Virus record (IMG/VR): IMGVR_UViG_3300009082_000959
DNA length: 64,000 nt
Origin: a virus
Taxonomy: Duplodnaviria; Caudoviricetes
Direction: 5' to 3' (one strand)
A model generated the notes under the pieces. The model had not been told where the DNA came from. It worked only from the letters and a program-made list of their open reading frames with translations, and did no database searches. The position numbers and the translations under genes are program-made. Positions 1-62,304 of this stretch are shown in pieces. Within the stretch, counting starts at the first letter, position 1, and each line of letters starts with the position of its first letter.

Positions 1-606
1 CTACAACCGCTTAAATTATTTTCTCATAAAGATGATGTAAGTGTAGAGAACATAAATTGTTTAAAGCAATTACCTGGCGACAAAATGTGTTCAACGGCAG
101 AATTTGAGGGAAAAGAATACGATATTAATATTTTAAAGAAAGAATGCCCGGCCGAAGTAGATTTATATTTCGGCAAAAATGCGCAGGTAATGATGCTAAC
201 CAATGATCCAAAAGGAAATTGGGTAAATGGAACTATGGGAATAATTAAAGATTTGTCCCCACTCGCAATAAAGTTTTCTTCTGGCGCGACATTTGAAATT
301 ACTCCTTTTACTTGGGAGAGGTCGGTTCCAAGAGTAAAGTTTGATAAATCAATATACAACGAAGTAGTAGCAAAGATGACACAATATCCATTTAGATTGA
401 GTTGGTCATCTACACTGCATAAATGTCAAGGTTTAACATTGGATTATGTAGAACTTGATTTATCAAGATCGTTTGCATGTGGCCAGTCATATGTGGGATT
501 GTCTCGGGTAAAAACAATCGAGGGTCTGACTTTGAGGTCTTGGAATAAAAGTAGTATAAAAACAGATAAAAAGGTTAGGGAATTTTATGGCATCACTAAT
601 AGTTAA
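1..606 (+). CDS. Pif1/RecD-like SF1B helicase, C-terminal part (5'-truncated by window edge)
   Basis: Frame is open from base 1. Contains QYPFRLSWSSTLHKCQGLTLD and GQSYVGLSRVKTIEGL, matching Pif1 motifs V/VI. Confidence 0.85.
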   Translation, partial: LQPLKLFSHKDDVSVENINCLKQLPGDKMCSTAEFEGKEYDINILKKECPAEVDLYFGKNAQVMMLTNDPKGNWVNGTMGIIKDLSPLAIKFSSGATFEITPFTWERSVPRVKFDKSIYNEVVAKMTQYPFRLSWSSTLHKCQGLTLDYVELDLSRSFACGQSYVGLSRVKTIEGLTLRSWNKSSIKTDKKVREFYGITNS

Positions 607-610
607 TGGT

Positions 611-793
611 ATGGATAAATTTGATCTTTCATTTGAAAGTATTAGTTTTATATACTTGAAAGTGTTTAAATATAATTTTCCAATAAAAATGAAAGATAAT
701 AATATTTGTATTGATTACCCAGCACTTGTAAAAGAGAAATATAGTTTATGGCGTAGGATTCGCCAGGAAATATTAGATTTTTTATGTATGTAG
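611..793 (+). CDS. Small protein, member of the 'YIxVFKYN' short-ORF family
   Basis: Contains FIYLKVFKYNFPIK. A 19-nt stretch (697-715) recurs at 817-835 (120-nt period), suggesting a second, decayed copy downstream. Confidence 0.55.
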   Translation: MDKFDLSFESISFIYLKVFKYNFPIKMKDNNICIDYPALVKEKYSLWRRIRQEILDFLCM

Positions 794-925
794 CAATATT
801 TATTAAAAATGGAAAGTAATAATATTTGTATTGATAAACCACGGAAACTATATAAGAGTAATAATGAGACTGTATAATACTATTATTACTACCAATGTTT
901 CCCTTGTCGCATGGTTCATAGTTTT

Positions 926-953
926 ACTATACACGATTTTTGGGTTTTGTCAA
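926..953 (-). promoter_or_regulatory. Sigma70-type promoter on minus strand
   Basis: Reverse strand reads TTGACA-N16-TATAGT. Confidence 0.5.
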
Positions 954-1033
954 GTTTTTTGGTCGATTTTTTTGAGGCTGTTACTCGGGCCTTTTAGACA
1001 TGCAAAGATTTTTTGCTCAAAGGAGAAGAAAAA

Positions 1034-1200
1034 ATGAATAAATTAGGCGGCAAAGAATTTGTATTAATTAATAGAAGGAAAGTGGATCGAAATATAAATG
1101 GAGCCTTGGATATTTTGTTCAGGGCAGCTGGAAATACATCCTATTTTAATGGTGATGTTCAAAATTGCACTGTTAATAAAAGTTAGCAGAAAGGTATCGG
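1034..1200 (+). mobile_element. Orphan remnant of IS607 3' end (tnpB C-terminus + omegaRNA/right end)
   Basis: Ungapped similarity to about 60975-61135 and identical terminal 18 nt TTAGCAGAAAGGTATCGG. ORF 1034-1186 (MNKLGGKEFVLINRRKVDRNINGALDIL...) aligns with TnpB KLGGKEYVLVGGKKVDRDINGALGIL. Confidence 0.85.
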
Positions 1201-1208
1201 CACGCAAC

Positions 1209-1625
1209 ATGAACCTCGGAAAAGTTATAAAAATATATGAAATCATTAAAAATAGATTACCTAAAACTTATCCTCACCCAAAACTCGCCTTCTTTGAGGA
1301 TGAGGATTGCATGTTAAGCAACACTAATTTAAAAAAAATAGAAAACGAAAATGTATATGCGGTATTTTCCCCAACCACAGAAACGATATGCTTGCCACTT
1401 AAAATGACCTTTGAGTATTATGGGAAAAATGGAAAGTATATAAACACAGTTAATTTAAATAAATTCACTGATGTAGAAATTGCTCATACTTTATTGCATG
1501 AGTGTTGTCATATGTATGCTGGCGAAAAGTATGGATATTTTTCAGAAAAATATCATGATGAAAAATATTGTGATACATTTGCGAGTAGGTGGGTAAAGGT
1601 TTTGGTTAAGGAAAAATTACTATGA
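1209..1625 (+). CDS. HExxH zinc metallopeptidase-like protein
   Basis: IAHTLLHECCHMY motif. Start at ATG 1209 preferred because the ORF-track extension lies inside the IS remnant. Confidence 0.55.
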   Translation: MNLGKVIKIYEIIKNRLPKTYPHPKLAFFEDEDCMLSNTNLKKIENENVYAVFSPTTETICLPLKMTFEYYGKNGKYINTVNLNKFTDVEIAHTLLHECCHMYAGEKYGYFSEKYHDEKYCDTFASRWVKVLVKEKLL

Positions 1626-1661
1626 CGCTTTTACATCGATGACAAAATAGTGGAATGGGTT

Positions 1662-1696
1662 GTCGCAACACCCAAAAATGTTGCGTGGATTGAAAC
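1662..1696 (+). CRISPR. Solitary type I-C-like CRISPR repeat unit (no array)
   Basis: GTCGCAACACCCAAAAATGTTGCGTGGATTGAAAC: 5' GTCGC, 7-bp stem CGCAACA/TGTTGCG and 11-nt 3' handle TGGATTGAAAC, as in type I-C repeats. Confidence 0.8.
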
Positions 1697-1758
1697 AACA
1701 GGGCAACAAAAAATAGAGTGAAGAGTAACATTATAATAAATAAAGAAAGGTGGTTTTT

Positions 1759-1923
1759 ATGTCTTTGGCACTTGTAAAATTATCAAAAAAGCGCAATGGA
1801 CGAATATATTATTTTTTGGATTACATTAGTTTAGATGTAGCAAGATTGGGCGTTCAAATACAAGGTGAGGAACACAATAAGAATGAGTGGGCCCTGGCTG
1901 AAATTGTAAGAGAATTTAAGTAA
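1759..1923 (+). CDS. Hypothetical 54-aa protein
   Basis: SD AAAGGTGG upstream; MSLALVKLSKKRNGRIYYFLDY...; followed by a terminator. Confidence 0.55.
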   Translation: MSLALVKLSKKRNGRIYYFLDYISLDVARLGVQIQGEEHNKNEWALAEIVREFK

Positions 1924-1934
1924 TATAATTTATG

Positions 1935-1968
1935 GGTTGCATATGCCTGAAAGCATATGCAGCCTTTT
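1935..1968 (+). terminator. Rho-independent terminator
   Basis: GGTTGCATATGC-CTGAAA-GCATATGCAGCC followed by TTTT. Confidence 0.75.
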
Positions 1969-1995
1969 AGGTATCGAATATATTTATGTTTTCCA

Positions 1996-2024
1996 TTGAC
2001 AATTGTTGACAAACGGTATATTAT
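1996..2024 (+). promoter_or_regulatory. Sigma70-type promoter for tnpB, probably giving a leaderless mRNA
   Basis: TTGACA-N17-TATTAT; ATG at 2032 is 7 nt after the -10 box with no SD between. Confidence 0.6.
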
Positions 2025-2031
2025 TATAATA

Positions 2032-3198
2032 ATGTTCAAATCCACGAAAACTACTTTACGGTTTGCTAATACTGGTAAACGAAATCACCTTGACAGTTTC
2101 CTCGACGAGTATCGTCGTGTGCTTGCGGTTTTCGTGGATTTGCTTTGGTCGCAAGAAAAGGTCCCAGTGTTGTTACCAGCTTCCGTCACGAAACCAATTC
2201 AAACTACTTCGTGGCTTTCCGCGAGAATACTACAAGCCGCAGGAAAACAGGCCAGCGGAATAGTTCGCGGAACTCGTAAAAAGCAACAACAACGAAAGTG
2301 GGTTTACGACAAACTCCAAACCGAAGGCAAATTTAAACAAGCACGAAAACTAAAACGAATTATAGACAAAGTCATTATAACCAAACCAAATATAAATCAA
2401 GTAGAACCAGAATTAGATTCGCGTTTTGTAAAACAGGACTGGACCAACTCAACTACTTTTGATGGGTTCGTGACTTTGTCTTCGTTGGGTAATCATTTAA
2501 AAATTGTGCTACCAGTAAAGCGTAATAAACATTTCAATAAATTGCTCACCGCTGGAACACTTAAAACCGGTGTCAGGATTTCACGTAATGCTTTGACTTT
2601 TTGTTTTGAATTACCTGACGTCAAACCGCGTTCCACAGGAACTACACTGGGAATAGACTTGGGAGTAAAAAATACTATCTCTACTTCCCAAGGATTTTCC
2701 AGTAAGCCCGACAACCACGGACATACACTGGATTCCATCAATACACGATTGACACGGAAAACAAAAGGTTCTAAAAACTTTAAACAGACACAAACACTAC
2801 GAACTAATTACATAAACTGGTCTGTGAATCAACTTAATTTAGACCAAGTTAAGACCGTAAAACTCGAAAACTTAAAACATTTTCGTAAAGGCGTAAAAAC
2901 TTCACGCAAACTAACCCACTTCACCTACACAGAGATTCAAAGTAAAGTAGTAAATTGTTGTAATTTACTTGGTGTCCAAGTAGAATACGTAAATCCTACT
3001 TATACTTCTCAAAGGTGTAGTTGTTGTGGTTGGGTTCGTAGTAGCAATAGGAAAGGCAAACAGTTTAAGTGCAAAGCCTGCGGCTTCGCTGTGGATGCGG
3101 ATTTAAATGCTGCCTTAAATATTGCCACTAACCTTCGGCCTATTGGCCGTGAGGAACGATTGCTCCACAAAAACCGCAAGGGTTTTTACTGGAAGTAA
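2032..3198 (+). CDS. tnpB: TnpB/Cas12f-like RNA-guided nuclease, no tnpA
   Basis: RuvC-I GIDLG, RuvC-II VKLENL, zinc finger CSCC...CKAC, RuvC-III DADLNAA; catalytic D/E/D intact. Start at 2032 (MFKSTK) preferred. Confidence 0.85.
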   Translation: MFKSTKTTLRFANTGKRNHLDSFLDEYRRVLAVFVDLLWSQEKVPVLLPASVTKPIQTTSWLSARILQAAGKQASGIVRGTRKKQQQRKWVYDKLQTEGKFKQARKLKRIIDKVIITKPNINQVEPELDSRFVKQDWTNSTTFDGFVTLSSLGNHLKIVLPVKRNKHFNKLLTAGTLKTGVRISRNALTFCFELPDVKPRSTGTTLGIDLGVKNTISTSQGFSSKPDNHGHTLDSINTRLTRKTKGSKNFKQTQTLRTNYINWSVNQLNLDQVKTVKLENLKHFRKGVKTSRKLTHFTYTEIQSKVVNCCNLLGVQVEYVNPTYTSQRCSCCGWVRSSNRKGKQFKCKACGFAVDADLNAALNIATNLRPIGREERLLHKNRKGFYWK

Positions 3199-3429: not shown

Positions 3430-3789
3430 ATGATAGTATTGCATGACATGATGGTTGCGTATTTGTCTGGTTTGGCGGAAGAAGTTGATGGAGAAATTTT
3501 TTGGGAGAATGTTTCTATTAAACTTTTGGACGCAGAAACAGAAACATATATTTACAGTGAATATGACAGCAATAAAATCAAACGCAGAGAAATGTTAAGG
3601 GTTGGTGAAACCGTAAGTGGTAAGGCTTGTTGGTGGGACAGTAGAGGTCGTTTAGTTGCAGAGTCACTATACAAAGATGGCCTATTAAACGGAACATCAA
3701 TTAGTTTTAATACCGATGGAACTATTAGAAAAAAATCTATTTATAAAGATGGAAAGTTATTGGATATAATCTATGACAGTTTTGCATGA
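3430..3789 (+). CDS. MORN-variant repeat / YwqK-like protein (LHD..AYLSGL leader family)
   Basis: N-terminus MIVLHDMMVAYLSGL; repeats of the type YKDGLLNG...FNTDG. Confidence 0.7.
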   Translation: MIVLHDMMVAYLSGLAEEVDGEIFWENVSIKLLDAETETYIYSEYDSNKIKRREMLRVGETVSGKACWWDSRGRLVAESLYKDGLLNGTSISFNTDGTIRKKSIYKDGKLLDIIYDSFA

Positions 3790-4132
3790 TGCGATGACAG
3801 CCTACTTGTCTGGCTTGACTGCCAAAAAGAATAAAAAAGAAATCTGGTGGCAAGACAAAAATGGATATAAAATTACCGTAGAATTAGTAGATGCTGATTT
3901 AGAGACATATATAGTAAGAGAATACTATGACAATGGAAAACTATGGTTTGAAATGAATTATTGCAAAGACCAATTGCATGGTTTGCTTAAATGCTATAAT
4001 GATAATGGTAATTTAGCGTGGGAATACAATTATTTAAAAAGCCAGCGTCATGGTTTGTGCAAACATTACTATGACAATGGTAATTTGCGGACACAATATA
4101 ATTACAATAACGGAAAACGAACACAAATATGA
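3773..4132 (+). CDS. MORN-variant repeat / YwqK-like protein
   Basis: MTVLHDAMTAYLSGL leader; YYDNGKL...Y.KDQLHG repeats. Confidence 0.75.
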   Translation: MTVLHDAMTAYLSGLTAKKNKKEIWWQDKNGYKITVELVDADLETYIVREYYDNGKLWFEMNYCKDQLHGLLKCYNDNGNLAWEYNYLKSQRHGLCKHYYDNGNLRTQYNYNNGKRTQI

Positions 4133-4560
4133 TACTTTTGTATGATGCACTGACAGCCTATTTGGCAGGACTTACTACTAAACTCAACGAAAAAGAAATT
4201 TGGTGGAAAAATGAATTGGGTAAAAAGATTACTATTGAGTTGGTAAGTTTGCGTTGGAAAAAATACACAGTGAGATATTATTATGACAATGGTAATTTGT
4301 GCTGTGAGTTAAATTATAATAAAGACGACCAACGGCACGGTATGTGTAAATGGTATTACGAAGATGGTAATTTGCACCATGAATTTAATTACTATAAAAA
4401 TCAATTACATGGTTTGTGTAAATCTTATTATGAATACGGTAATATTTCAGAAGAATTTAATTACCATAAAGGCTACCGACATGGATTAAATAAATGGTAT
4501 AATTTAAATAGTAACATAATTTTAGAGGAAAATTACAAACACGGAATACCACATGATTGA
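4129..4560 (+). CDS. MORN-variant repeat / YwqK-like protein
   Basis: MILLYDALTAYLAGL leader; several YYxxGN...HG repeats. Confidence 0.75.
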   Translation: MILLYDALTAYLAGLTTKLNEKEIWWKNELGKKITIELVSLRWKKYTVRYYYDNGNLCCELNYNKDDQRHGMCKWYYEDGNLHHEFNYYKNQLHGLCKSYYEYGNISEEFNYHKGYRHGLNKWYNLNSNIILEENYKHGIPHD

Positions 4561-5353
4561 ATTACTTTTTAGAAACACACTGGCGGAAGAAAACGAATTA
4601 CAAATAGCAAAAAAATATTTTGATATAAAACAGTATCGTTCAGAAATTACTCCGGGAGCGTTGATTATAGGCAGATATTCTGTTCTACCTTACTATAATG
4701 AACTGGAAAAAGATATACTAAAATTAGGCGGCAAACTAATTAACTCCTACGAAGATCATCTTTATATTGCTGACATAAAAAATTGGTATCCTGATTACCG
4801 AGACATAACGCCTATGACTTGGTTCGACCCATCAGAAGCAATACGGTCCGACTTTAACGGTTCCTTTGTTTTAAAAGGCAATGTGAATTCTCGAAAGCAA
4901 TTGTTTAACACACATATGTTTGCTGCGAATAAATCTAATATAATGAAAGTTTATTGCAAATTATTAGACGACACTCTTATTCAATATCAGGGAATTTGTG
5001 TCAGAGAGTTTGTGAATTTAATCAACTACGGCAAAGACCAAGTAACCGGTTGCCCAATATCAAAAGAGTTTAGGCTTTTTATTTTAGACGGCAAAGTTCT
5101 TTCAAAGGGATATTACTGGTCAAATTTTGTTGAAGAAGCAGAAAATCCGGACCCAAACGAAATACCAGAAGACTTCATACAAGACGCAATCAAAAGATGC
5201 CCAGTAAGATTTTTTGCTATTGACTTGGCCCAGAAAACTAACGGTGATTGGATGGTAGTTGAATTAGGAGATGCACAGATGGCTGGTCCATCTTGTAATG
5301 ATTTAGATAGTTTATATAAAAACTTAAAGGAAAATCTATGCAAAAAAGTATGA
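4553..5353 (+). CDS. ATP-grasp protein (R2K-like clade)
   Basis: SFVLKG, ICVREFV, KEFRLFILDGKV, YYWS, FFAIDLAQ...WMVVELGDAQMAG. Confidence 0.7.
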   Translation: MIELLFRNTLAEENELQIAKKYFDIKQYRSEITPGALIIGRYSVLPYYNELEKDILKLGGKLINSYEDHLYIADIKNWYPDYRDITPMTWFDPSEAIRSDFNGSFVLKGNVNSRKQLFNTHMFAANKSNIMKVYCKLLDDTLIQYQGICVREFVNLINYGKDQVTGCPISKEFRLFILDGKVLSKGYYWSNFVEEAENPDPNEIPEDFIQDAIKRCPVRFFAIDLAQKTNGDWMVVELGDAQMAGPSCNDLDSLYKNLKENLCKKV

Positions 5354-6609
5354 CAGATGTATATTTGAGTGTTTTAAAACACAAATGGCATTTAAGTGTG
5401 GCAAGAATGCAATTGTTACCAGAAGAAGAAATTAGATTATATTTAATGCCAACGATTAATGGCTATTATTGGCGCTCCATAGTTATAGTTAGTGGAAGTC
5501 AATGCAAGTATCAATGACATACATTTATATTTATGCACTCAAACATAAATGGTGTCTTAATTTATGTGGTTCAGTATTTAAGAACGAAATTTGTTTAAGT
5601 ATGAGACCGGCAAGGAGCAGTAATTGTTATATTTTTCGTGTAAAGGAAATCTATGCAAGCAACAATGATGTATGTATATTTAAGTGTCCTAAAATATGAG
5701 TGGGGATTAAGGTTGGGGCAAAAAAATCCAATATTACAAAACAACAACATTTGTGTATGCTTGACTCAACCAACAATGTCTGGCGGTTATGGTTATCGTG
5801 AGTATAATTATTTAATTAAGGCAAAACAATGAGACCGATTATAAAGTATACATATTTATATGTATTTAAACACAATTTTGGTTTATCCGTTGATGTTCTT
5901 ACAAAAAATGAATTAGTGTTACTTGCAACACCTCTAAATAACAATGATTATTGTCCCTTTCGAATATTTATTAAGCAGGTAAGATTATGCAAGCAAATAT
6001 GATGAGTTTGTATTTTTATACATTAAAATATAATTGGCATTTAGAGAATACCCATATATCGGTGAAAATAAAATTTACATCGACATTAGACCAAGCGTAA
6101 ATGGTTTTCATTGCTTCCATATTATAATTGAGGGAAACACATGCAACCTAAAATGAAAACCGTATATATTCTTAATTTGAAGCACAACTATTGTGTGGAC
6201 AGCGCAGAAATAATCGATAGCGAAATTACAATATATTTAAGGTCATCCATTAATAGTTTTAAACGGCATACTATTACGATATACGAGGATCAAGCAGCAT
6301 GCAATTAGATATGGTAGATTTATATGTTTATGTGTTGAAATCTAAATGGAGTTTGGAGCGTGAAACAATTATATACGAAAATATGCTTTGGATATATATG
6401 AGACCAAAACTTAATAGTTTTTACCGTTATCGTATTACAATTAAAGGAAATTTATGCAAGAGTCTATGAAAGCCATATATATTCTTAATTTAAAATATAA
6501 TTACCAAATATTTAAAGATAAGATAGTAATAAACAATAATAAAATTAGATTAACTGTTGGTGGAATTCAAGTTGAGATGCATTTAAAATGGAGGAACAAA
6601 GATGATTAA
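5338..6609 (+). repeat. Array A: 8 tandem overlapping short ORFs of the 'MQxxM..YI.VLK' family (starts 5338, 5502, 5653, 5829, 5987, 6141, 6299, 6454)
   Basis: Manual translation, e.g. MQKSMTDVYLSVLKHKW, MQVSMTYIYIYALKHKW, MQATMMYVYLSVLKYEW, MQPKMKTVYILNLKHNY, MQLDMVDLYVYVLKSKW, MQESMKAIYILNLKYNY. About 160-nt period; several have AAGGA SDs. Confidence 0.8.
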
Positions 6610-59384: not shown

Positions 59385-59461
59385 AAAAGAAAGGTTAGCT
59401 AACTGCACATAATCTGCTAATATCTTCCAACATAGTATGCCACTACATAGGAGGTATTTTC

Positions 59462-60055
59462 ATGTTCGTGCCGCTTAGAAAAGCGGTTGAATTAACGGGT
59501 CTACACCCAAACACTTTAAGGAAATATGCAGACCAAAACAAAATCAAAGCAGTCAGAACTCCCTGCGGGAACCGGTTGTTCGACACCGATTCACTTCCGG
59601 GCCAACAGGCTCAGCGATCAGCCACAGTCTGCTATTGTAGAGTTAGTTCAACCAAACAAAAATCAGGTCTCGCTAGACAAGTTGTTGAACTTAGAACCCA
59701 ATTCCCCCAAGCAGACATCATCCAAGATGTGGGATCCGAGCTCAACTTCAAAAGAAAAGGGCTTAGGTCCTTATTGGACCGATTGCTTCAAGGAGATCGT
59801 ATCACACTTATCGTGGCTCGCAGAGACCGGCTCTGCCGGTTTGGATTCGAGTTGCTTGAGTATTTGGTCACCAAAAACGGTGGAGAAATCATGGTTCTCG
59901 ACCAACCTGAAACAAGTCCGCAATCAGAATTGGTTCAAGACTTGTTGTCAATCATACTTGAGTTCTCTCGCAGAGTCCCAGGACTCCACAGATACTACGA
60001 TGATATCAAAAAAGATACGACTGTTACCAACTCAACAACAGAAACAGCAACTTAA
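59462..60055 (+). CDS. tnpA: IS607 serine recombinase/transposase (MerR-HTH + resolvase)
   Basis: GLHPNTLRKY, YCRVSS, DVGSELNFKRKGL, RDRLCRFGF, ELVQDLL. Confidence 0.95.
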   Translation: MFVPLRKAVELTGLHPNTLRKYADQNKIKAVRTPCGNRLFDTDSLPGQQAQRSATVCYCRVSSTKQKSGLARQVVELRTQFPQADIIQDVGSELNFKRKGLRSLLDRLLQGDRITLIVARRDRLCRFGFELLEYLVTKNGGEIMVLDQPETSPQSELVQDLLSIILEFSRRVPGLHRYYDDIKKDTTVTNSTTETAT

Positions 60056-61121
60056 TTCGTGGATAAACGGTTTTCGTTTTGTTTATAATCAGTCTTTGGA
60101 GTATGCACAGAAGCAAACAACTACTCCATCGTGGTTTAAAACTAAAAAGCAGTTGTTAGATCAGTTACCCTCTTGGACTAAACAAATTCCCTATCAAATT
60201 AAATCAATTGCTATAAAGGAAGCATTTGATAACCTAAGACAACGGAAAAAACAAGCAAAATTTAAACACACTAAATTTAAGATGCACTTTAAGTCTAAGA
60301 AGGAACCACAACAATCGTGTTATTTGCCTAAGTCTGCGGTTTTGACAAAGGGAATTTATCCAAGGTTGCTGGGGAAACTTAAATACACAGAATCACTGCC
60401 ATCCAATATTGGTGACTCTCGTTTAGTTTACGTTTACGGGAAATTTTACTTAACTATACCAACAACAAAGCAACGGTCTTTAACCGAGAACCAAGGCAGA
60501 ATCGTTGCTCTCGATCCAGGTATAAGAAAGTTTATTACTTTCGTAAGTCATGACAGTGCGGGTTGCTTGGCAACCCATGACATAGGTAGGATTTATAGAT
60601 TATGTTTTTATTTAGACCAATTAGTTTCCAAGACAAGCAAGGCCAAGTCTAAACAAAAACATAATTTACGAAAAGCAGCAAACCGTATTCGTGAAAAAAT
60701 TAAAAACTTAATAGATGAACTACACAACAAAGTTGCCTATTTTCTTGTTAATAATTTTGACCTAATTTTACTACCAACTTTTGAAACACAACAAATGGTT
60801 TCCAAAGCACATCGTAAAATAGGATCAAAATCAGCCAGGGCCATGATGACTTTCAGTCACTATAAATTTAAGCAGAAACTAAAACACAAAGCCTTTGAAT
60901 ACGGGAAAGTAGTAGTTGATGTTTGTGAAGCCTATACTAGTAAAACCAATAATTTTACTGGCGTGGTGGATAAAAAATTAGGCGGAAAAGAATACGTATT
61001 AGTTGGTGGGAAAAAAGTGGATCGAGATATAAATGGAGCCTTGGGTATTTTACTTATGGCATTGGGAGATACACCCTATTTGGACAATTCAGTCCACAAT
61101 TGCACTGCTAATCATTATTAG
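60000..61121 (+). CDS. tnpB: IS607 TnpB with Fanzor-like rearranged RuvC site
   Basis: KIRLLPT start; VALDPG; ILLPTF at the canonical RuvC-II position; VCEAYTSK; DRDINGA. Frame is open from 59526, overlapping tnpA. Confidence 0.9.
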   Translation: MISKKIRLLPTQQQKQQLNSWINGFRFVYNQSLEYAQKQTTTPSWFKTKKQLLDQLPSWTKQIPYQIKSIAIKEAFDNLRQRKKQAKFKHTKFKMHFKSKKEPQQSCYLPKSAVLTKGIYPRLLGKLKYTESLPSNIGDSRLVYVYGKFYLTIPTTKQRSLTENQGRIVALDPGIRKFITFVSHDSAGCLATHDIGRIYRLCFYLDQLVSKTSKAKSKQKHNLRKAANRIREKIKNLIDELHNKVAYFLVNNFDLILLPTFETQQMVSKAHRKIGSKSARAMMTFSHYKFKQKLKHKAFEYGKVVVDVCEAYTSKTNNFTGVVDKKLGGKEYVLVGGKKVDRDINGALGILLMALGDTPYLDNSVHNCTANHY

Positions 61122-61143
61122 CAGAAAGGTATCGGAATAATTA

Positions 61144-62304
61144 ATGAGTAAAAGTATGGCAGATATTTGGAAGACTATAGAAAAGCAACATGGTCCTGAG
61201 GGATTGTATGTTGGCAATACGGACATGACAACATATTCTGGGGCCATTCCTACCGGCAGTTATGGTTTGGACGACGCCCTGGGTATTTGGGGTCTTCCAA
61301 AAGGACACATGGTTCAGTTTGCGGGGTTTGAGCAATCCGGGAAAACACTGATGGCTCTTTCTGCTATCGCACAGTGGCAAAAACAAGGTTCATCTAACTG
61401 GGCCATGTTTATCGACGCAGAATTTACCTACACAAAAGAGTGGGCAGAGATGCTGGGAGTTGATACTTCCAGACTTTATGTTTATAGAGAAAATAAGGGA
61501 CCAGAAATTTTTGCTCGTTTGACTGGTATTCCCGGTAAACCAAATTTGCAAGGCGTGATTAAAAAGGTTAAGCCCGGCATTTTGGATCTTGAAATAGAAA
61601 ACGGCGGAACTGGATTAGGTATTATTGTTCTTGACAGCGTTCCAGCCGTATTAGTGCCCATGGAAGAAGCCAGTGCGCCTGGAAAACAAAATATGGCTCT
61701 AATGGCTCGTTTTCTTCCGCCTGAGCTACGAAAGCTTACACCACTATTGACAAAAACCGGTGTGTTGTTTATTGCAATAAACCAATTACGTTTTACGCCT
61801 GGGGTTATGTATGGAGATCCTACTATGTCTCCTGGTGGTCAAGCATTAAAACATGCTTGTGCACAGATTATTAATTTTGGACGTATGAAAGGAAAAGACT
61901 CGAAGATTGAAGAGGGAGAGGAACAAACAGGTCATCACATCATGGCCAAAATCGATAAGAACAAAAAAGCTCCGCCGTTTCGTAAAGCAACTTTTGGTAT
62001 TAAATACACAGAAGGTGTGGTAGAGCAAAACATAGAAATTCGTGACCTCGGAGCAAAATATGGTGTAATTCTTCGTCCCAACAATAGAATTTGGGAGCTG
62101 GATGGCATAAAATATAGTGGTAAAGATGATATTGCCGAAGCCCTGAAAGAGGAAACCTTACAGCAGTCTGTGTTGGAACGAGTTAAAGAAGCTAAGAAAA
62201 ACTGTATTCATCTAGTTAATGTTGATGACGAAACCGAAACCGAAGAAGAGATGGACCAAGAACAAGAATTGTTGGATGCGGAATCTACACAAGAATTGGA
62301 ATGA
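61144..62304 (+). CDS. recA: RecA recombinase
   Basis: IPTGSYGLD, GFEQSGKT, FIDAE, VLDSV, INQLR, PGGQALKH, NKKAPP. Confidence 0.95.
   Translation: MSKSMADIWKTIEKQHGPEGLYVGNTDMTTYSGAIPTGSYGLDDALGIWGLPKGHMVQFAGFEQSGKTLMALSAIAQWQKQGSSNWAMFIDAEFTYTKEWAEMLGVDTSRLYVYRENKGPEIFARLTGIPGKPNLQGVIKKVKPGILDLEIENGGTGLGIIVLDSVPAVLVPMEEASAPGKQNMALMARFLPPELRKLTPLLTKTGVLFIAINQLRFTPGVMYGDPTMSPGGQALKHACAQIINFGRMKGKDSKIEEGEEQTGHHIMAKIDKNKKAPPFRKATFGIKYTEGVVEQNIEIRDLGAKYGVILRPNNRIWELDGIKYSGKDDIAEALKEETLQQSVLERVKEAKKNCIHLVNVDDETETEEEMDQEQELLDAESTQELE

Follow-up and report, generated by a model that had tools for sequence, protein, structure and literature searches.

The right end of an IS607-family transposon, left without its genes near one end of a huge-phage sequence, raises the question of whether such a remnant is a working guide RNA, the source of a small peptide, a regulatory leader or a scar. 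It lies in a stretch of 64,000 nt (the window) belonging to the 105-kb record of an uncultivated huge phage. The original prediction described positions 1034-1200 as an orphan omegaRNA/right-end module of the IS607 family, collinear over 167 nt with the 3' end of an intact element and identical to it at the terminus, with no tnpA, left end or TnpB body. All of these features were borne out. The segment aligned with 60969-61135 without a gap and with 127/167 identical positions (76%), whereas the runner-up 167-nt match to the partner segment in the whole window reached 75/167, which rules out chance similarity. The terminal TTAGCAGAAAGGTATCGG was the same in both copies and the final 18 nt were identical. 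The right end of the orphan, ...GTTAGCAGAAAGGTATCGG, was that of the intact copy, with the terminal GG and the subterminal sequence of the family, and it fitted about 80 family right ends. The nhmmer alignment of the orphan covered 1034-1200 with an envelope from 1013, and the protein-profile and nhmmer envelopes extended the homology by ~12-20 nt leftward, to 1013-1022; the putative Shine-Dalgarno (SD) sequence AAAGGAG thus falls inside the relic homology.

Of the TnpB profile, positions 340-394 of 395 alone were present in the orphan, with the RuvC-III Asp changed to Asn; tnpA, the left end and ~320 tnpB codons have been lost from its parent. No tnpA or other TnpB fragment of the IS607 family was detected near the orphan (tblastn with TnpA and TnpB, positions 1-3000), neither nhmmer nor the protein profile, run in three frames, detected further degraded tnpB upstream of 1013, and blastn and blastn-short with the intact left end found no left end nearby. 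Upstream of the orphan, the left-end weight matrix scored at most 7.4, versus 16.9 at the true left end (59393). A MITE- or PATE-like reading was rejected because the upstream left end was absent by blastn and the weight matrix. Judged from its sequence, the orphan is a one-ended IS607-family right-end/omegaRNA module and not an autonomous insertion sequence. Sequence and covariance-model searches of the 105-kb record found two copies only. The nearest relative of the orphan was the intact copy (75.9%), itself just as similar to its counterpart in another phage, L007 (75.7%), and the orphan branch was only ~1.4 times as long as that of the intact copy relative to outgroups. Since the intact copy is as far from the L007 element as from the orphan, the relic represents an old separate lineage and not a recent copy. 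The features of both loci are collected in Table 1.

Table 1. Positions of the relic, the intact element and their neighbours, counted from the first nucleotide of the window.
Feature	Position	Strand	Remarks
IS607-family orphan relic	1019..1200	+	Last ~55 tnpB codons and right end, ending ATCGG
AAAGGAG, putative SD	1019..1025	+	tnpB Thr-Gly-Glu codons and/or old peptidase SD joined at GG
50-codon relic frame	1034..1186	+	RuvC-III DRD changed to DRN; stop inside stem D
Stem A	1103..1125	+	10 bp, 3-nt loop; fully paired (10/10) in the orphan
Stem B and pseudoknot loop	1127..1141	+	Loop AAUAC at 1133-1137; from model alignment
Variable hairpin C	1142..1165	+	A-U only and bulged in the orphan
Stem D (UGUUAAU/GUUAGCA)	1168..1189	+	7/7 pairs kept in the orphan
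Tail GAAAGGUAUCGG	1190..1200	+	Pseudoknot 3' strand at 1194-1198; GG crossover at the terminus
Putative guide flank of the orphan, CACGCAACATGAACCTCGGA	1201..1220	+	Spans the peptidase start codon; inferred from position
SprT/U49-like metallopeptidase gene, 138 aa	1209..1625	+	Start 8 nt past the relic, as set by 139-141-aa homologues
Second TnpB gene, 413 aa	1957-3198	+	Cas12f1-like_TNB, CxxC...CxxC zinc finger; 330 nt downstream of the peptidase gene
Intact IS607-family element	59395..61135	+	Left end after AAAGG; right end ATCGG 8 nt before recA
tnpA	59462-60055	+	Resolvase and MerR domains; within the intact IS607
tnpB	60000-61121	+	HTH_OrfB, OrfB_IS605 and Cas12f1-like_TNB domains; within the intact IS607
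omegaRNA scaffold of the intact IS607	60995-61135	+	From the family covariance model
Putative guide flank of the intact element, AATAATTAATGAGT...	61136..61155	+	Overlaps the recA start at 61144

The RNA of the orphan was judged against a model of its family. More than 2000 relatives of the intact TnpB were found; seven loci with 62-70% identity, mostly from related phages, were fetched, along with 80 metagenomic and 80 genomic loci at ~50% identity, the latter level being represented mainly by cyanobacteria, large sulfur bacteria and Latescibacteria. The clade lacks cysteines at the usual zinc-finger place (…YTSKTNNFTG…KKVDRD…; alignment A2), and in the intact copy all family-invariant acidic residues of TnpB are in place. 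The nearest cellular relatives of this clade were cyanobacterial, reminiscent of the Fanzor2-linked lineage (PMC13565253). Approximately 90 related elements shared a conserved omegaRNA, all ending in AUCGG. The family right end consisted of ...UUGG-N-AGAUAC-N-CCC, a variable hairpin and then UGCAUUGUUAAC-nnnn-GUUAGCAAAAAAGUAUCGG, beyond which the flanks diverged. The consensus structure, derived from a 135-nt alignment of 41 sequences with the orphan left out (alignment A3), comprised stem A (10 bp), stem B (3 bp), the variable hairpin C, stem D (7 bp) and a pseudoknot, in which the stem-B loop GAUAC pairs with GUAUC in the tail, immediately ahead of the terminal GG. This family secondary structure is strongly supported: across the 41 sequences 94.4% of cells were paired, compared with 83.4% in shuffles and 39-55% with slid partners, and both-sided changes were present in 15/25 pairs, including pseudoknot variants such as GAUUC with GAAUC and GACCU with AGGUC. 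No Rfam family matched the window at gathering score, and over 60850-61200 nothing matched even at E up to 10; thus, the family scaffold differs from the RAGATH-18 reRNA of other IS607 TnpBs.

The covariance model built without the orphan (R1) matched it over its full length with 79.4 bits (E 1.7e-17), within the 50-133 bits of TnpB-carrying elements. The orphan hence contains the entire omegaRNA scaffold of its TnpB clade, in agreement with the predicted module. Folding of both copies, which had been proposed as a check for compensatory changes, gave a mixed outcome. In stem A, the five differences from the intact copy keep or improve pairing, and they include a G-C to A-U double change, the first half of which destroys a near-invariant glycine; the stem energy was -10.8 kcal/mol in the orphan, -7.1 in the intact copy and -2.8 on average in neutral simulations (P 0.007). 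Stem D carries two wobble-preserving changes, with three of its four loop bases changed (P 0.08). Every pair of stems A and D was kept despite seven substitutions at paired positions. The remaining helices are damaged. Pair 79-90 of stem B is broken and the stem pairs in a shifted register only, the pseudoknot retains 4/5 pairs, its first pair G83-C173 (G-C in 41/41 members) having become A.C through a G to A change, and hairpin C has an energy of 0 kcal/mol versus -6.3 in the intact copy.

Among the columns conserved at 90% or more, the orphan differed at 7/47 (15%), a rough estimate of its divergence since the loss of constraint. Since 4/27 paired and 3/20 unpaired columns were changed, RNA positions were not spared. 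Under neutral decay, the chance that none of the 18 pairs in stems A and D would be broken was ~0.005-0.11 depending on the post-truncation divergence assumed, and 0.11-0.035 at 10-15% divergence. By a rough hand estimate over all helices, two pairs were broken against 3-5 expected, which is not significant, and the pattern was indistinguishable from 10-15% neutral decay. With regard to the refuting outcome named beforehand, stems disrupted as in neutral decay, the all-helix pattern was compatible with it and stems A and D were undisrupted. Given that A and D are kept, that the pseudoknot, B and C are damaged and that paired positions are not spared, ongoing selection on the orphan RNA is at most suggested. 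The compensated stems can also have been inherited from a functional parent.

The kept stems bear on the reading of the relic as a functional stand-alone omegaRNA. The TnpB encoded at 60000-61121 would take up the processed transcript of the relic in trans, and the resulting RNP would cut uninterrupted alleles of the peptidase ribosome-binding site (RRAGG + CACGCAACATGAACC...) in co-infecting related phages. The outcome would be either insertion of the relic through recombinational repair or simple damage to the rival genome. Taken as a whole, this chain is possible, if somewhat unlikely. The scaffold is complete, stems A and D have been preserved through wobble and compensatory changes, the identical terminal 18 nt include the 3' strand of the pseudoknot and UCGG, and an intact TnpB of the same clade is encoded in the same genome. 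By analogy with CboTnpB (10.1101/2023.11.20.567912), the C at position -3 of ATCGG would prevent self-cutting. Gene-less omegaRNA elements acted on in trans have already been proposed (10.1101/2023.03.14.532601), and 36% of RAGATH-18 RNAs do not adjoin a TnpB (PMC11061315). Against this stand the loss of an invariant pseudoknot pair, the shifted stem B and the unstable hairpin C, conserved paired positions that changed as often as unpaired ones, and a scaffold 24% diverged from the one that co-evolved with the resident TnpB. Furthermore, the truncated scar in L011, incapable of a meaningful guide, likewise keeps its stems. A scan of 500-2100 for sigma-70-type promoters and terminators gave no signal above shuffles. 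The TnpB of the intact copy may be able to load the relic RNA, which describes a capacity only.

The flank of the orphan bears on the same reading. The original prediction spoke of a new guide. Judging by the IS607 TnpBs studied so far, a guide would indeed begin at CACGCAAC..., but this is the native flank of an old insertion at the ribosome-binding site of the peptidase gene and not a reprogrammed sequence. The 20 nt at 1201-1220 were unique within the window at up to three mismatches, and the searches found no TAM-flanked target or empty allele for the orphan guide. In the viral_contigs set, there were neither relatives of the peptidase gene nor exact occurrences of the peptidase-start word, and a degenerate right-end word gave one chance match, inside a terminase-region gene. 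The sequencing runs listed for this DNA included no RNA run, and two DNA sequencing runs searched as contigs contained no joint skipping the relic and no informative variant.

The AAAGGAG motif lies 8 nt before the relic ATG and had been taken for a strong SD. The motif and its spacing stood, but selection is not needed to account for them. The relic residues LLKGEeKMNKLGG align with sFTGE..KLGG of the family in the TnpB profile, and L006, L007 and L009 have ACA GGA GAA where the orphan has AAA GGA GAA; consequently, AAAGGAG is either a relic of conserved codons or an insertion junction. The predicted 50-aa frame with DRN for DRD was confirmed as open. It has 29/50 residues in common with the TnpB C-terminus, including VDRNINGAL versus VDRDINGAL of the intact copy. 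With its SD, its ATG and the kept DR-N-INGAL, the frame could be thought to yield a 50-residue decoy or dominant-negative TnpB fragment (RuvC-III Asp to Asn), as had been suggested for the peptide. We consider such a product hardly credible. The differences were spread evenly over codon positions (14/11/15), 22 codon changes were non-synonymous and 3 synonymous, and 6/14 family-invariant residues were lost (D343N, which is catalytic, G349D, L352F, L355A, D357N and P359S). There were no small-protein homologues among 5.8 billion clusters and no Pfam match for the product, and in neutral simulations a frame of this length remained open by chance with P 0.38-0.62. The even codon spread, the lost residues, the chance-open frame and the lack of small-protein relatives together make a decoy peptide unlikely.

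The positions of both copies are explained by the insertion preference of the clade. The left-end flanks of the family read RR[A/G]GG, and in 21/65 distinct right ends (32%) an ATG followed at a distance of 4-14 nt and opened an ORF with a minimum length of 50 codons (30 for ORFs running off the contig), compared with 5% of random positions. Because the clade inserts at SD-like RRAGG, both copies end 8 nt before an ATG. Previously published IS607 TnpB TAMs are AGGAG, GAGGG and TGGG (PMC11061315; 10.1101/2023.11.20.567912). IS607 integrates at GG, with the right-end UCGG distinguished from the TAM at position -3 (PMC11061315; 10.1101/2023.11.20.567912; PMC13565253), and a scaffold end UCGG has been described (10.1101/2023.11.20.567912). 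Excision of the intact element in silico restored GAAAGG followed by 8 nt and the recA ATG. When AAAGG at 1019-1023 was joined to CACGCAAC-ATG, the same geometry was obtained, and the product resembled the native peptidase site of L099, GGAGG-CACTGGGGC-ATG. Insertion replaced AAAGG by ATCGG before recA and, probably, before the peptidase gene (GG at 59393-59394 and 61134-61135 for the intact element). Five related contigs carried peptidase homologues without an upstream omegaRNA, and the peptidase relatives had no insert and showed GGAG(G) 6-10 nt before the ATG.

We lean towards the reading that the orphan is a decaying one-ended scar, read through as a leader of the peptidase gene. An older, second IS607-family element would have inserted at the GG of the peptidase SD (AAAGG, 1019-1023), and a deletion would then have joined its left-end GG to an internal GG at the tnpB Thr-Gly-Glu codons, perhaps through aberrant recombination by TnpA. 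The relic would now form the 5' leader of the peptidase mRNA by read-through and would decay slowly, with no selected guide function of its own. The 50-codon open frame, together with its SD and ATG, would be a by-product. The sharp left edge of homology, the changes at 6/14 invariant residues and the damage to the pseudoknot, B and C argue for this sequence of events. The full set of A and D pairs and the last 18 nt, identical despite 76% overall, argue against it, and both fit continuing RNA selection.

The same leader position could also have been turned to use in cis. Translation of the 50-codon frame would melt stems C and D and let ribosomes reach the weak ATCGG by translational coupling, the relic being kept because the insertion displaced the peptidase SD. 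In both copies, 22 nt separate the stop of the upstream frame, and 8 nt the right end, from the next ATG, and a canonical arrangement of SD, spacer and ATG precedes the relic frame, which is open throughout. Nevertheless, such an arrangement under selection is improbable, as neutral simulations left the frame open in 38-62% of cases, relic codons account for the SD, and protein-level constraint was absent.

One-ended scars are not confined to the window, and right-end scars at varied stages of decay were seen in L011 (2320-2405) and L006 (~865-888). In L011, positions 2320-2420 hold stems A-D followed by AAATAGG and then GTTACC, abutting the left end of another element; in L006, ~865-895 reads ...GGAAGTATCGG, AGG and then the left end of another element. 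The two scars suggest repeated insertion at or into older right ends. At 2360-2642, L009 has a right end with three tandem TATCGG units. Immediately downstream comes the 3' portion of another TnpB gene, of the zinc-finger type, which has an omegaRNA-like fold of its own (60.8 bits). Positions 2490-2642 of L009 were rejected as another orphan because they belong to this gene, which was apparently interrupted by the IS607 insertion.

Two further candidates, found as C-terminal fragments in cellular genomes, were L184 in Anabaenopsis elenkinii (G001:C1:260400-261300; omegaRNA 120.6 bits) and L186 in a Latescibacteria genome (G002:C1:5245800-5247000; omegaRNA 92.6 bits). They were rejected as right-end-only relics, being internal-deletion derivatives with both ends kept and tnpB mostly deleted. 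Both sides are retained with 96-97% identity to full copies, so these derivatives are MITE-like and young. They belong to the same TnpB/omegaRNA family as the window relic, with most of the nuclease gene deleted and the omegaRNA at full model score, but they keep the left-end side at that high identity, whereas the relic is right-end only and 24% diverged.

The surroundings of the relic contain other elements. The second TnpB, downstream of the peptidase gene and absent from the original prediction, is unrelated to the IS607 TnpB at the tblastn level; its presence beside the relic shows that the spacer region has gathered two different TnpB-type elements. In the spacer between the helicase and peptidase genes, an exact 15-nt core, AATATTTGTATTGAT, occurs at 701-720 and 821-840 on the plus strand (0.19 matches expected), and a GTTTTGTCAA motif near 948 is also present ahead of the peptidase gene of the relatives L097 and L099; the repeats and the motif are possibly phage regulatory sites. 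The 120-bp-spaced repeat at 701/821 bears a faint likeness to a left end, but it was rejected as the left end of the relic on account of its low matrix score and the lack of a preceding GG. Further downstream, also on the plus strand, 3430-4560 comprises three tandem paralogous genes (119, 119 and 143 aa) starting with MI/TVLHD...AYLSGL and rich in YxxNGxL repeats, and ~5300-6100 holds tandem mini-genes, back-to-back frames of ~55-65 codons beginning MQxxMxxxY...LKxxW.

Among known systems, the PATE-like minimal IS200/IS605 elements are gene-less carriers of an omegaRNA that need TnpB in trans (Meers et al., 10.1101/2023.03.14.532601). They share with the relic an omegaRNA scaffold with its native flank, no adjacent nuclease gene and a putative dependence on a TnpB elsewhere in the genome. 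PATE-like elements retain their two transposon ends and are mobilisable by TnpA, whereas the relic has no left end, belongs to IS607 and not IS605, and resides in a huge phage. ISFba1/RAGATH-18 (PMC11061315) and the CboIStron TnpB (10.1101/2023.11.20.567912) resemble the relic family in being serine-recombinase IS607 systems with a UCGG end at the GG crossover, in the position -3 that separates donor from empty site, and in a pseudoknot beside the guide; their G-rich, SD-like TAM or target sequences AGGAG, GAGGG and TGGG parallel the RRAGG flanks of the relic family. Unlike these systems, the relic family has no Rfam match and the zinc-finger cysteines are missing from its TnpB clade. The RAGATH-18 reRNA does not overlap coding sequence, whereas the scaffold of the relic family, as in the intact copy, overlaps the last ~45 tnpB codons. 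Solo ends and truncated IS remnants are likewise immobile, decaying leftovers of one-ended deletion; unlike ordinary IS remnants, the relic spans a complete guide-scaffold RNA gene and so could retain activity.

As the evidence stands, the relic is an ordinary truncated IS copy, and elements of such kind are already known. A bolder proposal is that it serves as a working guide-only cassette of ~180 bp without transposon ends, relying on the TnpB encoded by the intact IS607, at a distance of 58 kb, to cut the uninterrupted peptidase ribosome-binding site of co-infecting relatives, either for self-spread by recombination or as an extra weapon against competing phages. We regard this proposal as unlikely. 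Were it true, a transposon nuclease with a single guide would have moved, within a phage, some way toward a multi-guide system. If the relic is active, a single phage-borne TnpB would have two guides, the second supplied by an immobile scar, which would be a simple route for a transposon nuclease to gain extra targets. For the family as a whole, the analysis provides a covariation-supported omegaRNA model with a pseudoknot for a widespread clade of zinc-finger-less IS607 TnpBs that is absent from Rfam, as well as evidence from across the family that the insertion sites of this clade are Shine-Dalgarno sequences directly ahead of start codons.
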